Below the pieces are notes generated by a model, which was given only the letters and a program-made list of their open reading frames with translations, did no database searches and was not told where the DNA came from. The translations under genes were made by a program, and so were the position numbers. 64,000 nucleotides of DNA, from assembly GCA_032160165.1 (NCBI GenBank), contig JAVHWA010000089.1:3502-67501 (forward strand), given 5' to 3'. The DNA is from Acidobacteriota bacterium (lineage in GTDB: Bacteria; Acidobacteriota; Blastocatellia; Pyrinomonadales; Pyrinomonadaceae). This document shows positions 31,468-40,078 of this stretch, piece by piece; position 1 is the stretch's first letter; each line of letters opens with the position of its first letter.

Positions 31468-31794
31468 TTAGCTCTGCTTGGTTCGGACCGAGCCGCTAAT
31501 CTTCTTGCGGGTCGTTTCGCCGGTCCTGAGCACAGGTATTCCCTGGTCTACGTCCGAATGTGGGCGCGGGATCACGTGGGTGGCTACAACCTTTCCCACT
31601 CTAGAGGCCGCTGCTGCCCCGGCGTCGACTGCGCTTTTGACGGCCGCCACTTCCCCCCGGACAATTGCCGTTACCAGCCCTGCGTCTATCTTTTCGTATC
31701 CCACCAGTTGGACGTTCGCGGCTTTGACCATGGCATCGGCCGCCTCGATCATCGCCACCAGCCCCATACATTCGACCATGCCGAGTGCTTCCAT
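31468..31794 (-). CDS. BMC-H shell protein (Pfam00936-type BMC domain)
   Basis: [59 protein letters not shown]...HVIPRPH is a canonical PduA/EutM-like hexamer sequence. Confidence 0.9.
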
Positions 31795-32449: not shown

Positions 32450-34735
32450 ATGAACTTAGTGTCGGAGTTAGTTCGGCAGATAAGTAATCCGAGCCTCCCC
32501 CGCGACCAGCGTGCGGAGCTCCGCTGCCATCTTGCTAAAGAGCTGGAAGAGGCGGGGAACTATGACGAGGCTGGGGCGGCTTTTGGAGAGATTTGGGAAA
32601 GCGTGGGGGAACGTCCCAGGGTTGACGGACTGGAGCCGCGTGTCGCCGGTGAGGTCCTTATGCGCGTTGGTGCTCTGACGGGTTGGATCGGAAGCGCAAA
32701 TCAATTAGCGGATGCACAAGAAATTGCAAAGGACCTAATCAGTGAGAGTGTTTCCCAATTTGAGTCGATCGATGATATCGCAAAAGTAGCGGAGGCGCGG
32801 ACGGAGCTCGCGTATTGTTACTGGCGGGAAGGTGCATTCGACGAAGCAAGAGTCACGTTGCACGCGGCGTTAAGCTACCTGACCGAAGAACATTCAGAAG
32901 TGAAGGCCGTCGCCTTGCTCCGCAGCGCCATCGTTGATATATCCGCCCAACGCTTCAACGATGCTTTACGGATCCTGACTGAAATCCAGCCGCTTTATGA
33001 TGAAGTTAAGAGCCATTCCTTTAAGGGACGATTTCACATCGCGCTCGCGAACACACTAAAGAATCTTGGAACTACTGAAAGACGCGGCGACTATATTGAT
33101 CGGGCACTAATCGAATACGCCGCAGCCAGCCATCATTTCGAAATGGCGGGACATACGTCGTATCGGGCCGCGGTGGAAAACAACTCGGGCTTCCTGTTAT
33201 TCAAAGAAGGAAAGTTCGACGAAGCAATAGCTCACCTGGAGAGCGCGCGCCGACTGTTCACCAGTCTCAAGGACAAGGTTCATAGCGCTCAGGTTGACGA
33301 GACACGGGCTCGCGTCCTGTTGGCCCAAAAGCTCAACCTAGAAGCTGAGAAGGTCATAAGGTCCGCTGTTCTGACCCTCGAGAAAGGCGGTGAGCATGCG
33401 TTGCTTGCCGAAGCGTTGACGACGCATGGCCTGGCGTTGTCGCGGCTGGGCCAGCGCGAGCATTCGCGGACGGTGCTTACCCGCGCCATGGAGGTTGCAG
33501 AACAGGCTGGTGATCCTGAGGGAGCCGGACGCGCAGCGCTGACATTGATTGAGGAGCTGCGAGACCGGTTGACCGAAGAAGAAGCGAGCCACATCTATCG
33601 GCACGCCGATGAGCTTCTTGCCGGCTCCCAACACATCGCGACAATCTTACGTCTGCGCGATTGTGCCCGGCACGTACTCGACTTGAATAAAACGAGTACG
33701 CGAGACGAGGCGACGACCACCTTCGTCTACGCGGCAGAGAACACGGCGGCACTGTTACAGCAGGCTCGCCGACTCTCGGAGATCGATCGGCCGGTTTTGA
33801 TTACCGGCGAACCGGGAACGGGAAAGGAAGTCCTGGCTACTCTGATCCATGAGTGGAGCGGTCGCGGTGGCAAATTTGTAGCAATCAACTGCGCGGCCCT
33901 CACCGACACCCGGATCGAATCACAGTTGTTCGGACATAAGAAGGGCAGCTTCACGGATGCAGTCGAGGATTATCCCGGAGCAGTTCGCGAAGCTGCGGGA
34001 GGTACATTGTTCCTCGATGAAGTGGCCGAACTAAATACTCCGAACCAGGTGAACTTGCTCAGGCTGATCGAGCGCGGCGAGATTTATCCGATCGGAGCCA
34101 CGGCGCCGGAACGAATCAATGTGCGAGTAATTACAGCCACGAATCGCAATCTGGCGGACCGAGTGTCAACGGGTAAGTTCCGACAGGACCTATTCTATCG
34201 TCTACAAACATTTCACCTGGATGTCCCTCCGCTGAGGGAACGAGCCGAAGACATACCGTCGATAGCGGAGCACTTTATTGCCGAAGCGTGCGAGCGTCAC
34301 CACAAACGTGTGATCTTCCACCCGGACAGTCTGGCCGCGATGAAAGAGTTGCCGTTGCCCGGTAACGCGCGTGAGCTGCGCATACTGATCGAGCGTACGC
34401 TTCTCAAAGCGGCGGACGGCGCTGAGATCGCACCCGGCGCAATCGAGACGGTGGCGCTTCGTCAGACGCGCGAGGCCGGATTCGCAGAGGTGTGGGAAGG
34501 TTTCTCTCTGGTAGAGGAGGTTTTGCGTTTTGAGAAGGGGTTGATTCTACGCGCGCTCAACGCAACCCAGGGAGGAGTTACTCGCGCTGCCAGGCTCCTG
34601 GGTGTGACCCATCAAACTTTGTCCTTCATACTTAACACGAGGCACAAAGACCTGCTGAGTGTGCGAAAACCCGTGACGCGACGCCGGCGTAGCATAATCC
34701 GTCCGGAGTTCGCTCGCGCGAGAAAACAACAGTGA
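32450..34735 (+). CDS. TPR-containing AAA+ enhancer-binding-type (sigma-54-interaction domain) transcriptional regulator with Fis-type HTH
   Basis: Motifs seen are Walker A GEPGTGKE, Walker B GTLFLDEV, an arginine finger region and a C-terminal GGVTRAARLLGVTHQTLSF. The GAFTGA loop reads GSFTDA. Confidence 0.85.
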   Translation: MNLVSELVRQISNPSLPRDQRAELRCHLAKELEEAGNYDEAGAAFGEIWESVGERPRVDGLEPRVAGEVLMRVGALTGWIGSANQLADAQEIAKDLISESVSQFESIDDIAKVAEARTELAYCYWREGAFDEARVTLHAALSYLTEEHSEVKAVALLRSAIVDISAQRFNDALRILTEIQPLYDEVKSHSFKGRFHIALANTLKNLGTTERRGDYIDRALIEYAAASHHFEMAGHTSYRAAVENNSGFLLFKEGKFDEAIAHLESARRLFTSLKDKVHSAQVDETRARVLLAQKLNLEAEKVIRSAVLTLEKGGEHALLAEALTTHGLALSRLGQREHSRTVLTRAMEVAEQAGDPEGAGRAALTLIEELRDRLTEEEASHIYRHADELLAGSQHIATILRLRDCARHVLDLNKTSTRDEATTTFVYAAENTAALLQQARRLSEIDRPVLITGEPGTGKEVLATLIHEWSGRGGKFVAINCAALTDTRIESQLFGHKKGSFTDAVEDYPGAVREAAGGTLFLDEVAELNTPNQVNLLRLIERGEIYPIGATAPERINVRVITATNRNLADRVSTGKFRQDLFYRLQTFHLDVPPLRERAEDIPSIAEHFIAEACERHHKRVIFHPDSLAAMKELPLPGNARELRILIERTLLKAADGAEIAPGAIETVALRQTREAGFAEVWEGFSLVEEVLRFEKGLILRALNATQGGVTRAARLLGVTHQTLSFILNTRHKDLLSVRKPVTRRRRSIIRPEFARARKQQ

Positions 34736-34759: not shown

Positions 34760-36127
34760 TCAGTTTCTCAGCGAATGGATCGGCGCAGGAATTCTACCTC
34801 CACGGCGTATGAACATGTCGGAAGAAAACTGATGAACCGCCATAATAGGCGCAGTCCCCAATAACCCGCCAAACTCGACAGTCTCTCCAACCGACATACC
34901 CGGTACCGGAATAATCCGAACAGCCGTAGTCTTGTTGTTCATTACCCCAATGGCCATCTCATCGGCGATGATGGCGGCTATTGTCTCAGCGGAAGTTGAG
35001 CCCGGGACTGCGACCATATCGATCCCTACGGAACAAACGCTTGTCCAGGCTTCCAATTTGTCCAGCGACAACGCGCCCATCCGAGCAGCATCGATCATAC
35101 CGGCGTCTTCGGAAACTGGAATGAACGCCCCGCTCATACCGCCCACCGAGCTCGAAGCCATGGCCCCGCCTTTCTTCACCGCATCCGTCAGAAGGGCCAG
35201 CGCGGCGGTAGTACCGTGCGTGCCGGCACGTTCAAATCCCATTCCCTGGATGATCTCGGCAACCGAATCGCCCGGTGTTGGTGTCGGCGCCAGCGAAAGA
35301 TCGATTATGCCGAACGGAATGCCAAGACGCCTGGCTGCTTCGCGTCCGATCAACTCGCCGGCCCGCGAAAGCTTGAACGATATTTTCTTTATGATCTCGG
35401 CTATCTCGTGAAGCGGAAGGTCGGGCGGCGCGTGCTTGACGGCGTGATTCACCACGCCGGGACCTGAGACACCAACGTTGATCACGGCCTCTGGCTCTCC
35501 GACGCCGTGGAACGCTCCCGCCATAAACGGATTGTCTTCCACTGCGTTGGCAAAGCACACAAACTTGGCGCACGCCAACCCACCTCGGTCTCGAGTGCGC
35601 TCTGCCATCTCCTTGATGAGCGCGCCGGTGCGTCGAACGGCGTCCATGTTTATTCCCGCCCGCGTCGTCGCCACGTTAAGCGAGGAACACAACCGCTCAG
35701 TAGACGCCAGCGCCTCGGGGATCGAATCCATAAAGTCGCTCTCAACTCGCGTCCAGCCCTTGTGAACCAAAGCGGAATAGCCGCCGATAAAATCCACGCC
35801 GACGCTTTGCGCTGACTCGTCGATCGCACGTGCGAGCGCAATGTAATCCCCTTCCGAGCGAGCGCCTTCGACGATCATCGAAGCGGGAGTAATAGAAATT
35901 CGTTTATTGGCGATCCGGATTCCCACCTCATCGCCAATCTCATCTACCGTTGCGACAAGCCGGCCCGCTGTCCGCAGGATCTTCTCGCGAACTCTGTCTG
36001 CGGTTTTCTCGATCGTATCGCTCGCGCAGTTTCGCAGCGATAGGCCAAGCGTTACCGTGCGAATATCGAGATGTTCGATCTCCGTCATCCGCAAGGTCTG
36101 TAGAATTTCAGCCTGTGAATATTCCAT
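34760..36127 (-). CDS. UPF0210 / DUF711 protein (named PFL family protein in NCBI annotation)
   Basis: It shows the N-terminal [18 protein letters not shown] and the C-terminal [17 protein letters not shown]. About 450 aa and an adjacent ACT-domain partner are both characteristic of the family. Confidence 0.8.
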
Positions 36128-36130
36128 AAG

Positions 36131-36221
36131 AGTTTAGAGTTCAGGGTTTCGGCTTTCAGGCTTCAGGCTTCACGGTTTAATTCAACTCGGAACTCAAAAC
36201 CCGAAACTCAGTACCCAACTA
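36131..36221. repeat. 13 consecutive heptamers forming an imperfect inverted array (spacer between zinc-ribbon gene and UPF0210 gene)
   Basis: The left arm reads AGTTTAG AGTTCAG GGTTTCG GCTTTCA GGCTTCA GGCTTCA CGGTTTA. The right arm reads ATTCAAC TCGGAAC TCAAAAC CCGAAAC TCAGTAC. Confidence 0.8.
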
Positions 36222-36635
36222 TCCGAGGAGATGGTTGAACCAAAGAAACAGGAGAGCAACTACGAAGATAGCGATAGCGATGAGCACGAATCGCAGGTTG
36301 GGATCGTCAGAGGCTTCTTCGAGCATTACATTGGAGGCCTGTCGCCACTTTTCCACGCGGGGGCCGATCTTGCCTTCCACAACCTCGCGTGCAGATGTTC
36401 TTACTCGCTGTCGTTTCGCGGGCTCGTCGCCGCTCGGAGCCACCTCGACCACCGCGGCGGACGCCTGGGCTTTTCCATCTGTCGCTTTCAGCGACGAAGC
36501 CTCAGGTGCGCTCGTGTCGGATACGGCTTCGGTCGTTCCGGACTTCAAGGTATTTCCGCATTCCGGGCAAAAAAAAGCCGTTCCGCGCACCGAAGCGCCG
36601 CATTTCAAACATCGCCTTGAGATCTCAGGTTCCAT
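36219..36635 (-). CDS. Zinc-ribbon protein with C-terminal TM helix
   Basis: It shows CLKCG...CPECG and FVLIAIAIFVVALLFLWF. Its start overlaps the stop of the upstream ACT gene (TAATG). Confidence 0.6.
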   Translation of the reverse strand: MEPEISRRCLKCGASVRGTAFFCPECGNTLKSGTTEAVSDTSAPEASSLKATDGKAQASAAVVEVAPSGDEPAKRQRVRTSAREVVEGKIGPRVEKWRQASNVMLEEASDDPNLRFVLIAIAIFVVALLFLWFNHLLG

Positions 36636-37108
36636 TAGATTCGATGCATCGCGTTAAAGAGGTCTTCCCGTTGCGCATAGATGCGAACGCCCAAATGCTC
36701 GCCCGCTTTGCGAAAGCGCTCCTTGAGTGCTGAAGCAGATTCCTTCGCGCGGGAAATGTCCGCGATGATGATCATCGCGAATTTGCCCTGAACGACGGTC
36801 TGGTTGATATCGATTATGCTGCACTCGGCTTCTGCGAGGACCTCGGACACGCCGGCGACGATTCCCGGATGATCCACGCCAAAGACAGATACGATCAATC
36901 GCGCTGCGGAGCCTGCGTCGCGCGCTTCGCGTTCGCGCACGCTCGTGGGACCTGCATCCACCTCGCCGGCTGCGCCGTTGCCTACCACGGGCTCAATAGC
37001 AGTGTAGACGTCAGTCACTAACTGTTCGACCATCTGTTCGTCAGCGCCCGCGCCCAGTCGGCCATAGACCGCCCGTGTTATCCGATAAATCAGTTCTTCG
37101 TTTGCCAT
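36635..37108 (-). CDS. ACT-domain protein (UPF0237-like) with about 70-aa N-terminal extension
   Basis: The ACT core reads LIVSVFGVDHPGIVAGVSEVLAEAECSIIDINQTVVQGKFAMIIIADI. The extension contains the helices EELIYRITRAVYGRL and EQMVEQLVTDVYTAIEPVV. I prefer the start MANEEL at 37108. Confidence 0.7.
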   Translation of the reverse strand: MANEELIYRITRAVYGRLGAGADEQMVEQLVTDVYTAIEPVVGNGAAGEVDAGPTSVREREARDAGSAARLIVSVFGVDHPGIVAGVSEVLAEAECSIIDINQTVVQGKFAMIIIADISRAKESASALKERFRKAGEHLGVRIYAQREDLFNAMHRI

Positions 37109-37167: not shown

Positions 37168-37500
37168 CTACCGCCTTCGATTATCTACCCCCCTCAGTTC
37201 GTCCGCGGCGTCATTAGCTTCCTGCGAAACCGAATCCTGTAAGTCCATCCGATCAACGATCGCGACCACAGCGGCTTCTATCGACATATCCTGATTGCCG
37301 ATAGCGGTGCGCGCGGCTTTGCCATACGCGCACATCACGATTTCACCAATGCCGGCTCCTAGCCGATCAGCAACCACCACAATATTCCGCGTCGGCTCTT
37401 TGTCCAGATCGTAAGGATGGACAATCAAAAAACGAACGCCCTCCAAATCGGGCGTCTTCTTGGTTGACCAGACTGTACCGACTACTTTGCCCAGGAACAT
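37168..37500 (-). CDS. BMC-P vertex protein (EutN/CcmL family)
   Basis: MFLGKVVGTVWSTKK...GVRFLIV......VVADRLGAGIGEIVM...G.AAR is a canonical EutN/CcmL pentamer sequence. Confidence 0.9.
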   Translation of the reverse strand: MFLGKVVGTVWSTKKTPDLEGVRFLIVHPYDLDKEPTRNIVVVADRLGAGIGEIVMCAYGKAARTAIGNQDMSIEAAVVAIVDRMDLQDSVSQEANDAADELRGVDNRRR

Positions 37501-37587: not shown

Positions 37588-39471
37588 TTATCCTTTCGCG
37601 AACACTTCAGCGGGGTCGCCTATGTCGCGGGCTGAAGGGGTGATGATGGTGCGCGCATTTACGTAGATCTTTTCACCCTTTTGAATCGCGCGGCGCACGT
37701 CGTCTTCGCTAACGAAATCGACTGGCGCGCGTGCACTCCCATTCGCGGTGCCCCGCGATCCGTTGGTTGAATTTCCTCCACCATGCGGTGTGGAACTCCG
37801 TGACGTGTTTTCCGGCGAACTCCCATTGCCTCCGCGCGCCTCGACTGCTGTCGGCGCGGCTTCAGCATGCGGCGCTGCCGACGGGGCGGCGTACATGCTT
37901 CCCGCTTCGATATCAATCACCGGCTGAGCAGGTGACGCAGAGGCAGTTGGACGCATGGCTGCATGCGTGGCCTGGCCAGGACTGCGGCCTGCAAGGAATC
38001 TATCCACGATGGCTGCGATTTCTTCGCGACCGATTGGTCGCGGACCTTCCTGCGACGCAGCCACCGCCGGTTGCGAAGGCGATACGGTAGTCTTGTGAGT
38101 CGCAAGCGCCGGCCTGCTGCTTTTGACCGGTCTGGTTTCGAACGCCACTCGCTTTATGTCCATCAAATGGAGCGGAGAGACGTTGTCCGAAGTTACGTTC
38201 CCTCCCCAGGATCCACAGCCCAAGGTCATGGAAGGCGGCAAGGCCGTCGAGAAACCAATCGCTCCGTGCGTAGTCGGTGAATTTACGATAATGCGCGATG
38301 CAGGCATCTCGCGCCCGTACGCTAGGGCGGCTTCGCGCGAGCGGGTATGAACTCCTGCGGTGTGGCCCATTCCGCCATAACTAAGGATTTCGAAACAGCG
38401 TGCTGCGCCACGCTCGAGTCCATCGGCGACATAAAAGGCGAGCAACGGCGAGAGCTTTTCCATCGAGAGCGGATAGTCGCGGCCTACGCCACCGACGTCG
38501 AACAGTAAACAGCGTGTGCCCGGCGGTACGCTCAGACCAGCCAACTGAGCGATCACTTCCACAGACTTGCCCACGATCTTGGGATTCAGCGAGCGTTGAG
38601 GGGTCGCAACTACCTTTGCGAGTTGATCGGATTCGGACGCATTCAGGAAGTGCCCTCCCTGGGCTTTGAACTGTTCGCGAACAGCCTTCTCGATCGGTGC
38701 GTCCACCACGACCGCTTGCTCGGAAGCGCAGATCGTTCCATTGTCGAAGCAGGTCGATGTCAGAATATCCTGTATGGCTTTAGCTACGTCGGCTGTCCGT
38801 TCGATGAATACGGGAACGTTGCCGGGCCCTACACCAAAAGCCGGCTTACCCGAAGAATAGGCCGCACGCACCAATCCGATTCCACCCGTCGCCAGAATGA
38901 CCGCAGTCTGCTTGTGTTTCATCAGACTTTCAGTACCCTCGATCGACGCAGTTGTCATGCAGCCGATGGCGTCCGCGGGCAGGCCTTCCTTGACTCCTGC
39001 ATCTCTAACGACTTTGACGGTTTCATTGATACAGCGGATCGCTGAAGGATGTGGCGAGAGGACGATCGCGTTACGCGATTTGACTGCGATCAGACATTTA
39101 AAGATAGCGGTCGAGGTTGGATTCGTGGAAGGTATGATTCCGGCAACCACTCCGCGCGGACTGGCGATCTCAACCACGTCTTTTGTCTCGGAGACTACGC
39201 CGACCGTGCGCAGATTCTTGAAGTAGTTCCAGACGTCTTCAGCCGCGAACCGATTCTTGACTTCTTTATCGGCCGGGATTCCAAAGCCGGTCTCTTCGAC
39301 TGCCAACGCGCCAAGCCTGGCGGCTTCGCGCAACGCAGCTTTGGACATCGCCTCGCAGATGCGATCGATCTTACCCTGATCGAAACGGGCCAGATCTACT
39401 TGAGCGCGATGCGCCGCTTCGACAAGATCGCGCGCCTGCTGGACCGAGACGAGGTCTTTGTCAACTGACAT
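37588..39471 (-). CDS. CoA-acylating aldehyde dehydrogenase (EutE/PduP-like) with about 170-aa C-terminal extension
   Basis: The core shows the N-terminal [24 protein letters not shown] and catalytic [15 protein letters not shown]. It ends near ...[12 protein letters not shown]. The extension carries [15 protein letters not shown] and the terminal [34 protein letters not shown]. Confidence 0.9.
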
Positions 39472-39491: not shown

Positions 39492-39561
39492 GAATCGCGA
39501 ATCGTGAATGGTAAATAGGCGAAGAGCAGCCGCTATTTACGATTCACGATTTACGATTTAC
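39492..39561. repeat. Inverted heptamer arrays (GAATCGN)x3-4 ... (GATTYAC)x3; spacer between BMC-H and AldDH genes
   Basis: GAATCGC GAATCGT GAATGGT AAATAGG is followed by a loop and then CTATTTAC GATTCAC GATTTAC GATTTAC. The right arm overlaps the BMC-H stop codon. Confidence 0.85.
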
Positions 39562-39952
39562 TTCTCTCTTTGTTGTTCTCTCGCGCGCCCGACATTGATC
39601 GGCCCTGATCGCCTTCGCCGAGTTGACCCTTCGCACCTGCGCCGATTGCGCGCTCGTCCGGGCTATAGCCCGTTCGGCCATTGACCGGGAGAACACGTTC
39701 AACTTCGCCGTGGGGGCGCGGAATCACGTGCACGCTTATCAATTCTCCGACTCGGCGCGCCGCTGCCGCACCTGCGTCGGTAGCGGCCTTAACCGCGCCA
39801 ACATCTCCGCGGACGAAGATGGTCACATAGCCCGCGCCTATATATTCTTTTCCTAAAAGCGTCACATTGGCCGCCTTAACCATCGCGTCGGCTGCCTCAA
39901 CGGCGCCGACAAATCCTTTGGTCTCGACCATTCCTAATGCTTCGAGAGGCAT
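39551..39952 (-). CDS. BMC-H shell protein with about 45-aa C-terminal tail
   Basis: It reads [60 protein letters not shown]...HVIPRPH. The ATG at 39952 lies 9 nt after GAGGA. Confidence 0.9.
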
Positions 39953-40078
39953 GAGTATCAATCCTCACTTTTCCGGTTGTAGAAGTTAAAAGCGATTGCT
40001 GGTTGTTCTTGCTCTGCAATCGTAGACCTGTGGGCCGGAAGAATCAAGACCAAAAGACTGGAGGGTGACGTCAAGCTA

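Follow-up and report, generated by a model that had tools for sequence, protein, structure and literature searches.

A conserved two-helix module on a shell-adjacent ACT-domain protein: a putative microcompartment-association element in Pyrinomonadaceae

An ACT-domain protein encoded among bacterial microcompartment (BMC) shell genes of a Pyrinomonadaceae bacterium carries, ahead of its ACT core, a conserved pair of helices that is plausibly an encapsulation or cargo-association element of an unusual two-helix type. The gene lies on contig JAVHWA010000089.1 of an Acidobacteriota genome, within a stretch of 64,000 nucleotides (hereafter the window, whose numbering is used throughout), at 36635-37108 on the minus strand, and its product of 157 aa begins with an ATG at 37108. 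It is the fourth gene of an operon that reads, on that strand, BMC-H shell protein, acylating aldehyde dehydrogenase (AldDh), BMC-P shell protein, ACT protein, Zn-ribbon protein, and DUF711 protein. The N-terminal module is translated, conserved, and helical, and a linker that is disordered and free of constraint sets it off from the ACT core; in several lineages the module is genetically coupled to shell genes. Its reading as a putative microcompartment-association element, directed at either shell or cargo, is given a probability of about 50%, since the protein's anatomy, its operon context, the distant shell-adjacent homologs, a second N-terminal add-on found in relatives, a likeness to EutC, and the precedent of EutBC and PduCDE all point in that direction.

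An ACT Protein with a Long N-Terminus

A first-pass annotation, made from the letters of the window alone, had singled out positions 36902-37108, corresponding to codons 1-69 of the open reading frame (ORF), as an unusual extension of a protein family whose stand-alone members are about 90 aa long. The remainder of the gene (aa 70-157 and the stop codon, 36635..36901, minus strand) is a UPF0237-type ACT core by its Pfam, NCBIfam, and PDB matches. Pfam ACT_6 (2.4e-14) and ACT match aa 71-143, while aa 70-157 align to profile positions 3-90 of the UPF0237 equivalog model NF001220 with a score of 98.4 bits (cut-off 74). The 91-aa UPF0237 protein of Streptococcus pneumoniae (PDB 1ZPV) resembles the core alone in both sequence and fold, with a template modelling (TM) score of 0.88, and a Foldseek search with the whole predicted model likewise gave structural matches for the ACT core alone. 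Many representatives of the UPF0237 family are only 89-98 aa long; the protein in the window exceeds the stand-alone length of ~90 aa by 69 N-terminal residues and is one of a long subfamily whose members measure 130-165 aa. Because the family models, 1ZPV, and the short homologs cover the ACT core only, the extension of ~70 aa is real, as had been claimed, and its sequence had been quoted exactly (MANEELIYRITRAVYGRLGAGADEQMVEQLVTDVYTAIEPVVGNGAAGEVDAGPTSVREREARDAGS).

Comparison of related genomes also bears on the start codon. An ATG followed by MA(N/D)E(E/D)LIYRIT occurs at the same position in 78 of 80 related Pyrinomonadaceae/Blastocatellia genomes, approximately 20 of which have an in-frame stop 0-2 codons 5' of the conserved ATG, and more than 100 separately called homologous proteins of 155-165 aa span 100% of the query. 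Judged from these alignments, the ATG at 37108 is the genuine start of the ACT protein. The contrary view, that the extension is an annotation artefact and that a start further downstream yields an ordinary ACT protein of ~90 aa, can draw on a Met inside the ORF at aa 26 and on the fact that no strong Shine-Dalgarno sequence was seen upstream of the ATG at 37108, but it is extremely improbable and was rejected in view of the conserved start and of the coding-type pattern of codon-position variation described below. The first-pass annotation had named a downstream start as something that would undo its interpretation; the same two results failed to bear this out.

The Two-Helix Module and Its Linker

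An AlphaFold2 model of the ACT protein, built with a 38-sequence alignment, predicts two helices at aa 4-18 (37055..37099, minus strand, EELIYRITRAVYGRL) and aa 24-42 (36983..37039, minus strand, EQMVEQLVTDVYTAIEPVV), each with a predicted local distance difference test (pLDDT) score above 90, followed by disorder and then by the ACT fold. This is the secondary structure that the first-pass annotation had expected. The turn between the helices is a conserved LG-xxA motif (aa 18-23), and its glycine, G19, is nearly invariant among 38 distant homologs. From aa 43 to 69 (36902..36982, minus strand) runs a flexible linker of glycine, alanine, and charged residues, of which aa 43-57 are predicted to be disordered (pLDDT near 50, and ~50 in aa 46-54); across homologs the length of this linker ranges from ~10 to ~60 aa.

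The conservation of these segments differs markedly. Among 81 sequences, the fraction of the majority residue averages 0.90 in helix 1, 0.76 in helix 2, 0.34 in the linker, and 0.87 in the ACT core. The entropies at codon positions 1, 2, and 3, in bits, are 0.39/0.14/1.36 for helix 1, 0.63/0.39/1.46 for helix 2, and 0.37/0.22/1.32 for the ACT core, while in the linker all three positions vary (1.39/1.35/1.79). As positions 1 and 2 are constrained and position 3 is free, just as in the ACT core, the N-terminus is a coding region on which purifying selection acts. For the linker, by contrast, presence is the only constraint, and its earlier description as a flexible spacer ahead of the ACT core is upheld by the low pLDDT, the low conservation, and the lack of codon constraint. 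Helix 2 is amphipathic, with a hydrophobic moment (muH) of 0.45 (p=0.001 versus shuffles).

The module is an old feature of the subfamily. A homolog search that took in 1.8 billion cluster representatives recovered many proteins of 130-165 aa, 30-50% identical to the one in the window, that carry the same N-terminal unit, with the consensus xxEExIxxIxxxxxxxLGxxAxxxxVExxVxxV. Since the ~40-aa module is kept in ACT homologs down to 30% identity and across phyla, and is common to those of 30-40% identity, it is an old trait of the long subfamily rather than a local acquisition. A search with the 67-aa N-terminus alone returned just fragments, frameshifted copies, and chimeras of the same ACT family. 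Similarly, a hidden Markov model (HMM) of the module, run against the 17,020 ORFs of the window and 170 loci, found nothing convincing outside ACT proteins, the best chance match scoring 11.3 bits. A subset of the ACT homologs carries a different N-terminal domain of ~45 aa, and two of them, P0234 and P0238, possess this domain followed by the two-helix module.

Coupling of the Module to Shell Genes

In the window, the BMC-P gene lies 59 bp upstream of the ACT gene, and BMC-P is found upstream of ACT in every related locus for which upstream sequence is available. More distant relatives were surveyed in a metagenome scan with a 6-sequence alignment of distant homologs, which led to 80 further loci; HMMs were built for their annotation. 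In the resulting set of 90 metagenomic loci, an ACT gene was scored as shell-adjacent where a BMC-P or BMC-H gene lay directly upstream within 122 bp. A clear module was present in 63 loci, 26 of them shell-adjacent, and a divergent, weak module in nine, one of them shell-adjacent; none of the 18 plain ACT genes, which lack a module, adjoined a shell gene. Thus 27 of 72 genes with a module or weak module are shell-adjacent versus 0 of 18 plain genes (Fisher p=0.0017, at least 500 bp upstream, no phylogenetic correction). Stated the other way around, wherever an ACT gene was found to follow a shell gene directly, it bears the module, in the 27 metagenomic loci as well as in the Pyrinomonadaceae set.

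This adjacency spans at least six sequence clusters and a GC content from 0.40 to 0.67, and the triads of shell, ACT, and DUF711 genes are often isolated among housekeeping genes. The shell-adjacent distant homologs comprise L084/85, L086, and L087, together with 22 loci of the metagenome scan. For example, P0218 (35% identity) is encoded between a BMC-P and a DUF711 gene and P0205 between a BMC-H and a DUF711 gene, while P0238 closes a complete metabolosome locus that also holds AldDh, PTAC, PduS, and several shell genes.

Comparison with Known Encapsulation Peptides

Canonical N-terminal encapsulation peptides include aa 1-19 of EutC, aa 1-19 of EutE, and those of PduD and PduP. The module resembles them in that it is N-terminal and helical and is joined to a cargo domain by a flexible linker of low conservation; as with EutC and PduD, it is carried by what would be the smaller partner in an enzyme encoded by two genes, and the gene that bears it lies among shell genes. 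When the module profile was compared with the 16 proteins of the Escherichia coli K-12 eut operon, its best match was aa 2-23 of EutC, an encapsulation peptide validated by experiment, although the match is a weak one (8.9 bits, E=0.0016), and the hydrophobic moments of its helices (0.45-0.49) lie in the range of those for E. coli EutC (0.55) and EutE (0.41). The module shows no significant similarity, however, to the peptide of the co-encoded AldDh. A likeness seen by eye between the ACT helices and the AldDh peptide, EE(L/I)xx(I/V)xR..GR, was dropped (hhalign E 0.11 and 0.36). The proposed likeness to PduP- and PduD-type peptides is thus supported in part, by the layout, the BMC-P neighbor, the bias toward shell adjacency, and the weak but best match to EutC, and not by similarity to the AldDh peptide. 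In the same way, the notion of two encapsulation peptides is sound in its order of helix, linker, and cargo, but in place of two independent peptides there is a single helix-LG-xxA-helix unit of ~40 aa.

Two parallels come from the published BMC catalogue. Like the protein in the window, an ACT-domain protein of FRAG4 loci is found beside shell genes; its N-terminal domain is described as BMC-specific, while the helical extensions of 70-80 aa in BUF3 loci are likewise N-terminal, joined by flexible linkers, and proposed to be targeting or assembly elements (PMC8217296, Suppl. Data 2). Both differ from the window locus in BMC type and phylum, and the FRAG4 likeness is one of description only. 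The catalogue's table of HMMs names an ACT model for ACI and MIC3 loci (PMC8217296), and the ACT protein of ACI loci is therefore already on record; an extension or encapsulation peptide on this ACI/MIC3 protein is not described there (PMC8217296), and the part of the catalogue's encapsulation-peptide HMMs that was available holds no ACT-derived model (PMC8217296). A search of the available literature found no paper joining ACT domain, encapsulation peptide, and microcompartment. A conserved two-helix module on a regulatory-type protein has accordingly not been described in the catalogue that defines these locus types (PMC8217296).

Weighing the Association with Microcompartments

A number of observations weigh against the association of the module with microcompartments. 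Regarding the module itself, searches of Pfam, NCBIfam, and PDB gave no match; the moment of helix 1 (muH 0.49, p=0.16) does not rise above shuffled controls, such that of the two amphipathic helices claimed in the first-pass annotation both are predicted to be helical and only the second is significantly amphipathic against shuffles. The EutC match of 8.9 bits falls below the best chance match among the 17,020 ORFs, and comparison of helix 1 and helix 2 with AldDh peptide profiles gave hhalign E values of 0.11-0.36 and no reciprocal HMM matches. Canonical peptides of 15-20 aa are also unlike a module of ~40 aa with two helices and an LG-xxA turn, and unlike one that is conserved across phyla to 30% identity and confined to ACT proteins, as it was in all 170 loci examined. 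Regarding genomic context, 37 of the 63 clear-module loci are without a shell gene in the available DNA, as are ten of the 13 module loci whose flanks reach 8 kb or more in either direction. These ten are mostly from Ignavibacteria, as judged by exact-sequence look-ups, and a high-GC lineage (L158) also bears the module without a shell gene. The clearest misfit is a single lineage (L081-L083 and L106:9980-10444), where a module-bearing ACT gene comes directly after a histidine kinase gene, with neither DUF711 nor shell gene within 10 kb. In L081-L083, which are short contigs, the ACT gene is followed by a gene for an enoyl-CoA hydratase. The Ignavibacteria genes (L114-L140, e.g., L124:9992-10414 and L137:9995-10417) use GTG or TTG starts, which are validated by public gene calls that match the resulting proteins exactly.

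These points could be accommodated if the module had nothing to do with microcompartments and instead mediated oligomerization or the binding of a partner, be it DUF711, a kinase, or the protein itself, with adjacency to shell genes reflecting co-regulation or shared metabolism. In addition to the shell-less and kinase-linked loci, this explanation gains from the age and ACT-specificity of the module and from its lack of significant similarity to any of the encapsulation peptides compared. It leaves unaccounted for, however, that all 27 shell-adjacent metagenomic ACT genes bear a module or weak module and plain genes never adjoin a shell gene, a pattern that the Pyrinomonadaceae share and that recurs across sequence clusters of very different base composition. 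Nor does it readily fit the isolation of shell-ACT-DUF711 triads among housekeeping genes, or the independent gain by ACT homologs of a second add-on that matches a shell-binding domain of EutQ (see below). Plain ACT-DUF711 pairs also exist and work without the module, and it is therefore not needed for the pair itself.

The Ignavibacteria, the main non-adjacent group, deserve particular mention, as they are also the main hosts of FRAG1 loci, which are shell-only, occur at up to six genomic sites, and hold no identifiable enzymes (PMC8217296, Suppl. Data 2). Because of this, module genes that lie away from shell genes are compatible with a microcompartment role. The metagenome-assembled genome (MAG) CG_4_8_14_3_um_filter_37_9, found through the ACT matches, is not among the FRAG1 hosts in the available part of the catalogue (PMC8217296), and the link is at taxon level only. 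Taken together, a function unrelated to microcompartments is unlikely, albeit one to be taken seriously.

Likeness to EutQ and a Possible Receptor Role

Another means by which the module could act in a microcompartment is suggested by EutQ. In Salmonella, helices H1/H2 of EutQ (aa 9-41) bind the shell and are followed by a flexible region, whereas the H3/H4 hairpin (aa 62-99) binds the peptides of EutC and EutE (Sci Adv 2025, PMC12487888). Residues 62-99 bind aa 1-20 of EutC with a dissociation constant (Kd) of 6-8 uM, and aa 1-99 suffice to target green fluorescent protein (PMC12487888). By analogy, the module would be an H3/H4-like receptor hairpin for encapsulation peptides and the ACT protein an adaptor or scaffold of the cargo core, clamping the AldDh peptide (aa 482-496) or an aldolase peptide into a helical bundle and possibly sensing a metabolite.

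The anatomy lends itself to such a comparison. As in EutQ, a helical hairpin with a conserved turn stands on a flexible tether ahead of a small globular domain, and P0234 and P0238 copy the whole order of EutQ: an H1/H2-like domain comes first and is joined by a linker to the two-helix module, from which a second linker leads to the body of the protein. The AldDh encoded beside the ACT gene of the window not only has an encapsulation peptide but also ends in an H1/H2-like domain. Conservation across phyla would likewise suit a folded receptor more than a simple peptide. The window protein differs from EutQ in lacking an H1/H2-like domain and in having an ACT body in place of a cupin. At the level of sequence, hhalign places the ACT-family profile at a single site in EutQ, aa 69-100, which is H3/H4, but with E=0.27 and a probability of 0.2%; the second-best match of the module HMM among the Eut proteins is EutQ aa 71-99, at just 3.6 bits, and BLASTP of P0238 versus EutQ gave no match. 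Homology of the module to H3/H4 was consequently rejected as not significant, leaving an architectural analogy only. Module genes far from any shell gene weaken the receptor reading just as they weaken that of an association element, and a receptor role is distinctly unlikely.

A further likeness to EutQ comes from the second add-on. Both the ~45-aa N-terminal domain of the ACT homologs and the C-terminal domain of AldDh match EutT and EutQ at their N-termini (17.9, 10.8, and 10.0 bits); for an HMM of 69 AldDh tails, the residues matched among the 16 E. coli Eut proteins are aa 7-39 of EutQ and aa 4-39 of EutT. The ACT family has therefore gained BMC-type add-ons more than once. In P0220 (L089:10001-10423, L090:5918-6340), the EutQ/EutT-N-like domain occurs without the two-helix module; the gene is paired with DUF711 there, and a shell gene is absent from the surrounding 10 kb. 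The AldDh tail of 44 aa (aa 584-627, 37591-37722, minus strand) is very conserved and corresponds to what the BMC catalogue lists as a domain of unknown function (PMC8217296). As the EutQ region that it matches is the one through which, according to the 2025 study, EutQ binds the shell, it may be a shell anchor.

The Operon and Its Locus Type

The operon begins with a BMC-H shell hexamer gene (39551-39961, minus strand, the likely ATG being at 39952), assigned by Pfam BMC (4.3e-29) and by synteny. The AldDh that follows (37588-39471, minus strand, 627 aa) is supported by Pfam Aldedh and is TIGR02518-like. Its internal encapsulation peptide (aa 482-496, nt 37984-38028, minus strand) was recognized from the conservation of the tail and lies between low-complexity linkers, and its C-terminal EutQ/EutT-N-like domain (aa 584-627, nt 37591-37722, minus strand), identified by HMM, is also conserved. 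Next come the BMC-P vertex shell protein (37168-37500, minus strand; Pfam EutN_CcmL 1.6e-28), the only BMC-P gene in the window, and the ACT gene.

Downstream, a protein of 138 aa with an N-terminal zinc ribbon (weak Pfam matches) and a C-terminal transmembrane segment, the Zn-ribbon protein, is encoded at 36219-36635 (minus strand), with its start overlapping the ACT stop codon by 1 nt. The position of this gene is kept in related Pyrinomonadaceae loci even though the sequence is only 27-50% identical, while ACT-DUF711 pairs elsewhere, in other lineages, lack the gene. The last gene of the operon encodes a DUF711/UPF0210 protein of 455 aa (34760-36127, minus strand; Pfam DUF711 8.5e-182, PDB 2HA9 6.4e-157). 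A second, solitary BMC-H gene (31468-31794, minus strand; Pfam BMC 2.5e-29, 59% identity to the first by tblastn) has counterparts downstream of DUF711 in the majority of related loci. The two BMC-H genes and one BMC-P gene reported in the first-pass annotation are therefore indeed present. The second BMC-H gene adjoins a CorA transporter gene and is separated from the operon by a gene for a TPR-containing sigma-54 activator (32450-34735, plus strand). A match to the sigma-54 promoter consensus was not found near the operon despite the adjacent activator gene, and sigma-70-like and terminator-like sites at the operon occur at chance frequency.

The same gene order is found in 80 Pyrinomonadaceae/Blastocatellia genomes wherever the contig reaches far enough, and the nearest homologs, like every one of the 80 syntenic loci, belong to Pyrinomonadaceae, Blastocatellia, or Chloracidobacterium MAGs. 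In the ACI satellite locus, AldDh has a near-C-terminal encapsulation peptide followed by a domain of ~50 aa (Sutter et al. 2021, PMC8217296), with BMC-P and BMC-H encoded beside it (PMC8217296, Suppl. Data 2). The type is assigned to Acidobacteria of subdivisions 4 and 6, with Blastocatellia listed among the hosts (PMC8217296). Its main locus is described as lying elsewhere in the genome, with genes for a class II aldolase and a hydroxyacid dehydrogenase and a BMC-P triplet (PMC8217296). Given that the host group, the AldDh peptide and 44-aa tail, and the flanking BMC-P and BMC-H genes all fit this description, the operon in the window is, by its gene content, assigned to the ACI type of satellite locus.

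A Proposed Role with DUF711

The most regular neighbor of the ACT gene is DUF711, found downstream in 74 of the 90 metagenomic loci, in about 60 of these within ~170 bp or overlapping. In the window one small gene, that for the Zn-ribbon protein, is inserted between the two. In S. pneumoniae the corresponding proteins are SP0238 (1ZPV) and SP0239 (UPF0210, 2HA9), to which the ACT core and DUF711 of the window show orthologue-level matches; SP0238 differs in being 91 aa long, in having no N-terminal module, and in having no shell genes nearby. DUF711 belongs to a group of ten-stranded beta/alpha barrels together with ribonucleotide reductases and glycyl-radical enzymes (PMC4390871). The model NF003700 aligns the window's DUF711 protein from end to end, leaving no room for an extension of its own. 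The ACT protein is probably the small subunit that regulates DUF711. A carbon-nitrogen hydrolase (CN_hydrolase) gene immediately follows BMC-P, ACT, and DUF711 in three unrelated lineages (L084:3275-4135, L095:11818-12702, and L144:11976-12932), and may be a clue to the reaction in which the two proteins take part.

A targeting element on the small subunit is a known arrangement, in that EutC carries EutB and PduD carries PduCE. Most likely, aa 1-42 of the ACT protein would act in the same fashion, as a tethered helix-turn-helix module that links the protein to the ACI-type microcompartment, its partner being the shell, on the lumenal side, or else the cargo core held together by encapsulation peptides. 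As the small regulatory subunit of the downstream DUF711/UPF0210 enzyme, the ACT protein could then ferry DUF711 into the compartment by piggy-backing, much as EutC does for EutB and PduD for PduCE, since DUF711 has no extension to do so itself. It is plausible on these analogies that the module binds a component of the shell or of the cargo, as is an ACT-DUF711 complex with both partners inside the compartment.

It is tempting to go one step further and suggest that ACT and DUF711 are unrecognized cargo not only of ACI but also of MIC3 and FRAG compartments, with the module as a targeting or adaptor device shared across phyla, DUF711 as a new class of BMC enzyme, and the ACT protein as its ligand-sensing, shell-tethering subunit. 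According to the catalogue, MIC3 has no detectable encapsulation peptides, and none were found in FRAG genomes either (PMC8217296). In its full breadth this proposal is doubtful.

Biological Significance

It is nonetheless the unassigned contents of these compartments that lend interest to the module. The Acidobacteria that harbor ACI microcompartments can be dominant members of soil communities, and the FRAG and MIC3 types are distributed among Ignavibacteria, Planctomycetes, and many candidate phyla. We know of no signature enzyme or substrate for ACI, MIC3, or FRAG, and, to our knowledge, no function has been assigned to the UPF0237/UPF0210 pair (SP0238 and DUF711). If the module does serve in targeting or as an adaptor, the widespread UPF0237/UPF0210 pair would be the first concrete cargo candidate for these compartments, and the compartments would in turn provide the first functional context for the pair; moreover, a conserved two-helix type of targeting element would join the toolbox for engineering protein compartments. 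Were the module unrelated to microcompartments, the recurrent triads of shell, ACT, and DUF711 genes would still call for an explanation. The main value of the present findings is thus as a lead, one that connects the UPF0237/UPF0210 pair with compartments to which no cargo has been assigned.

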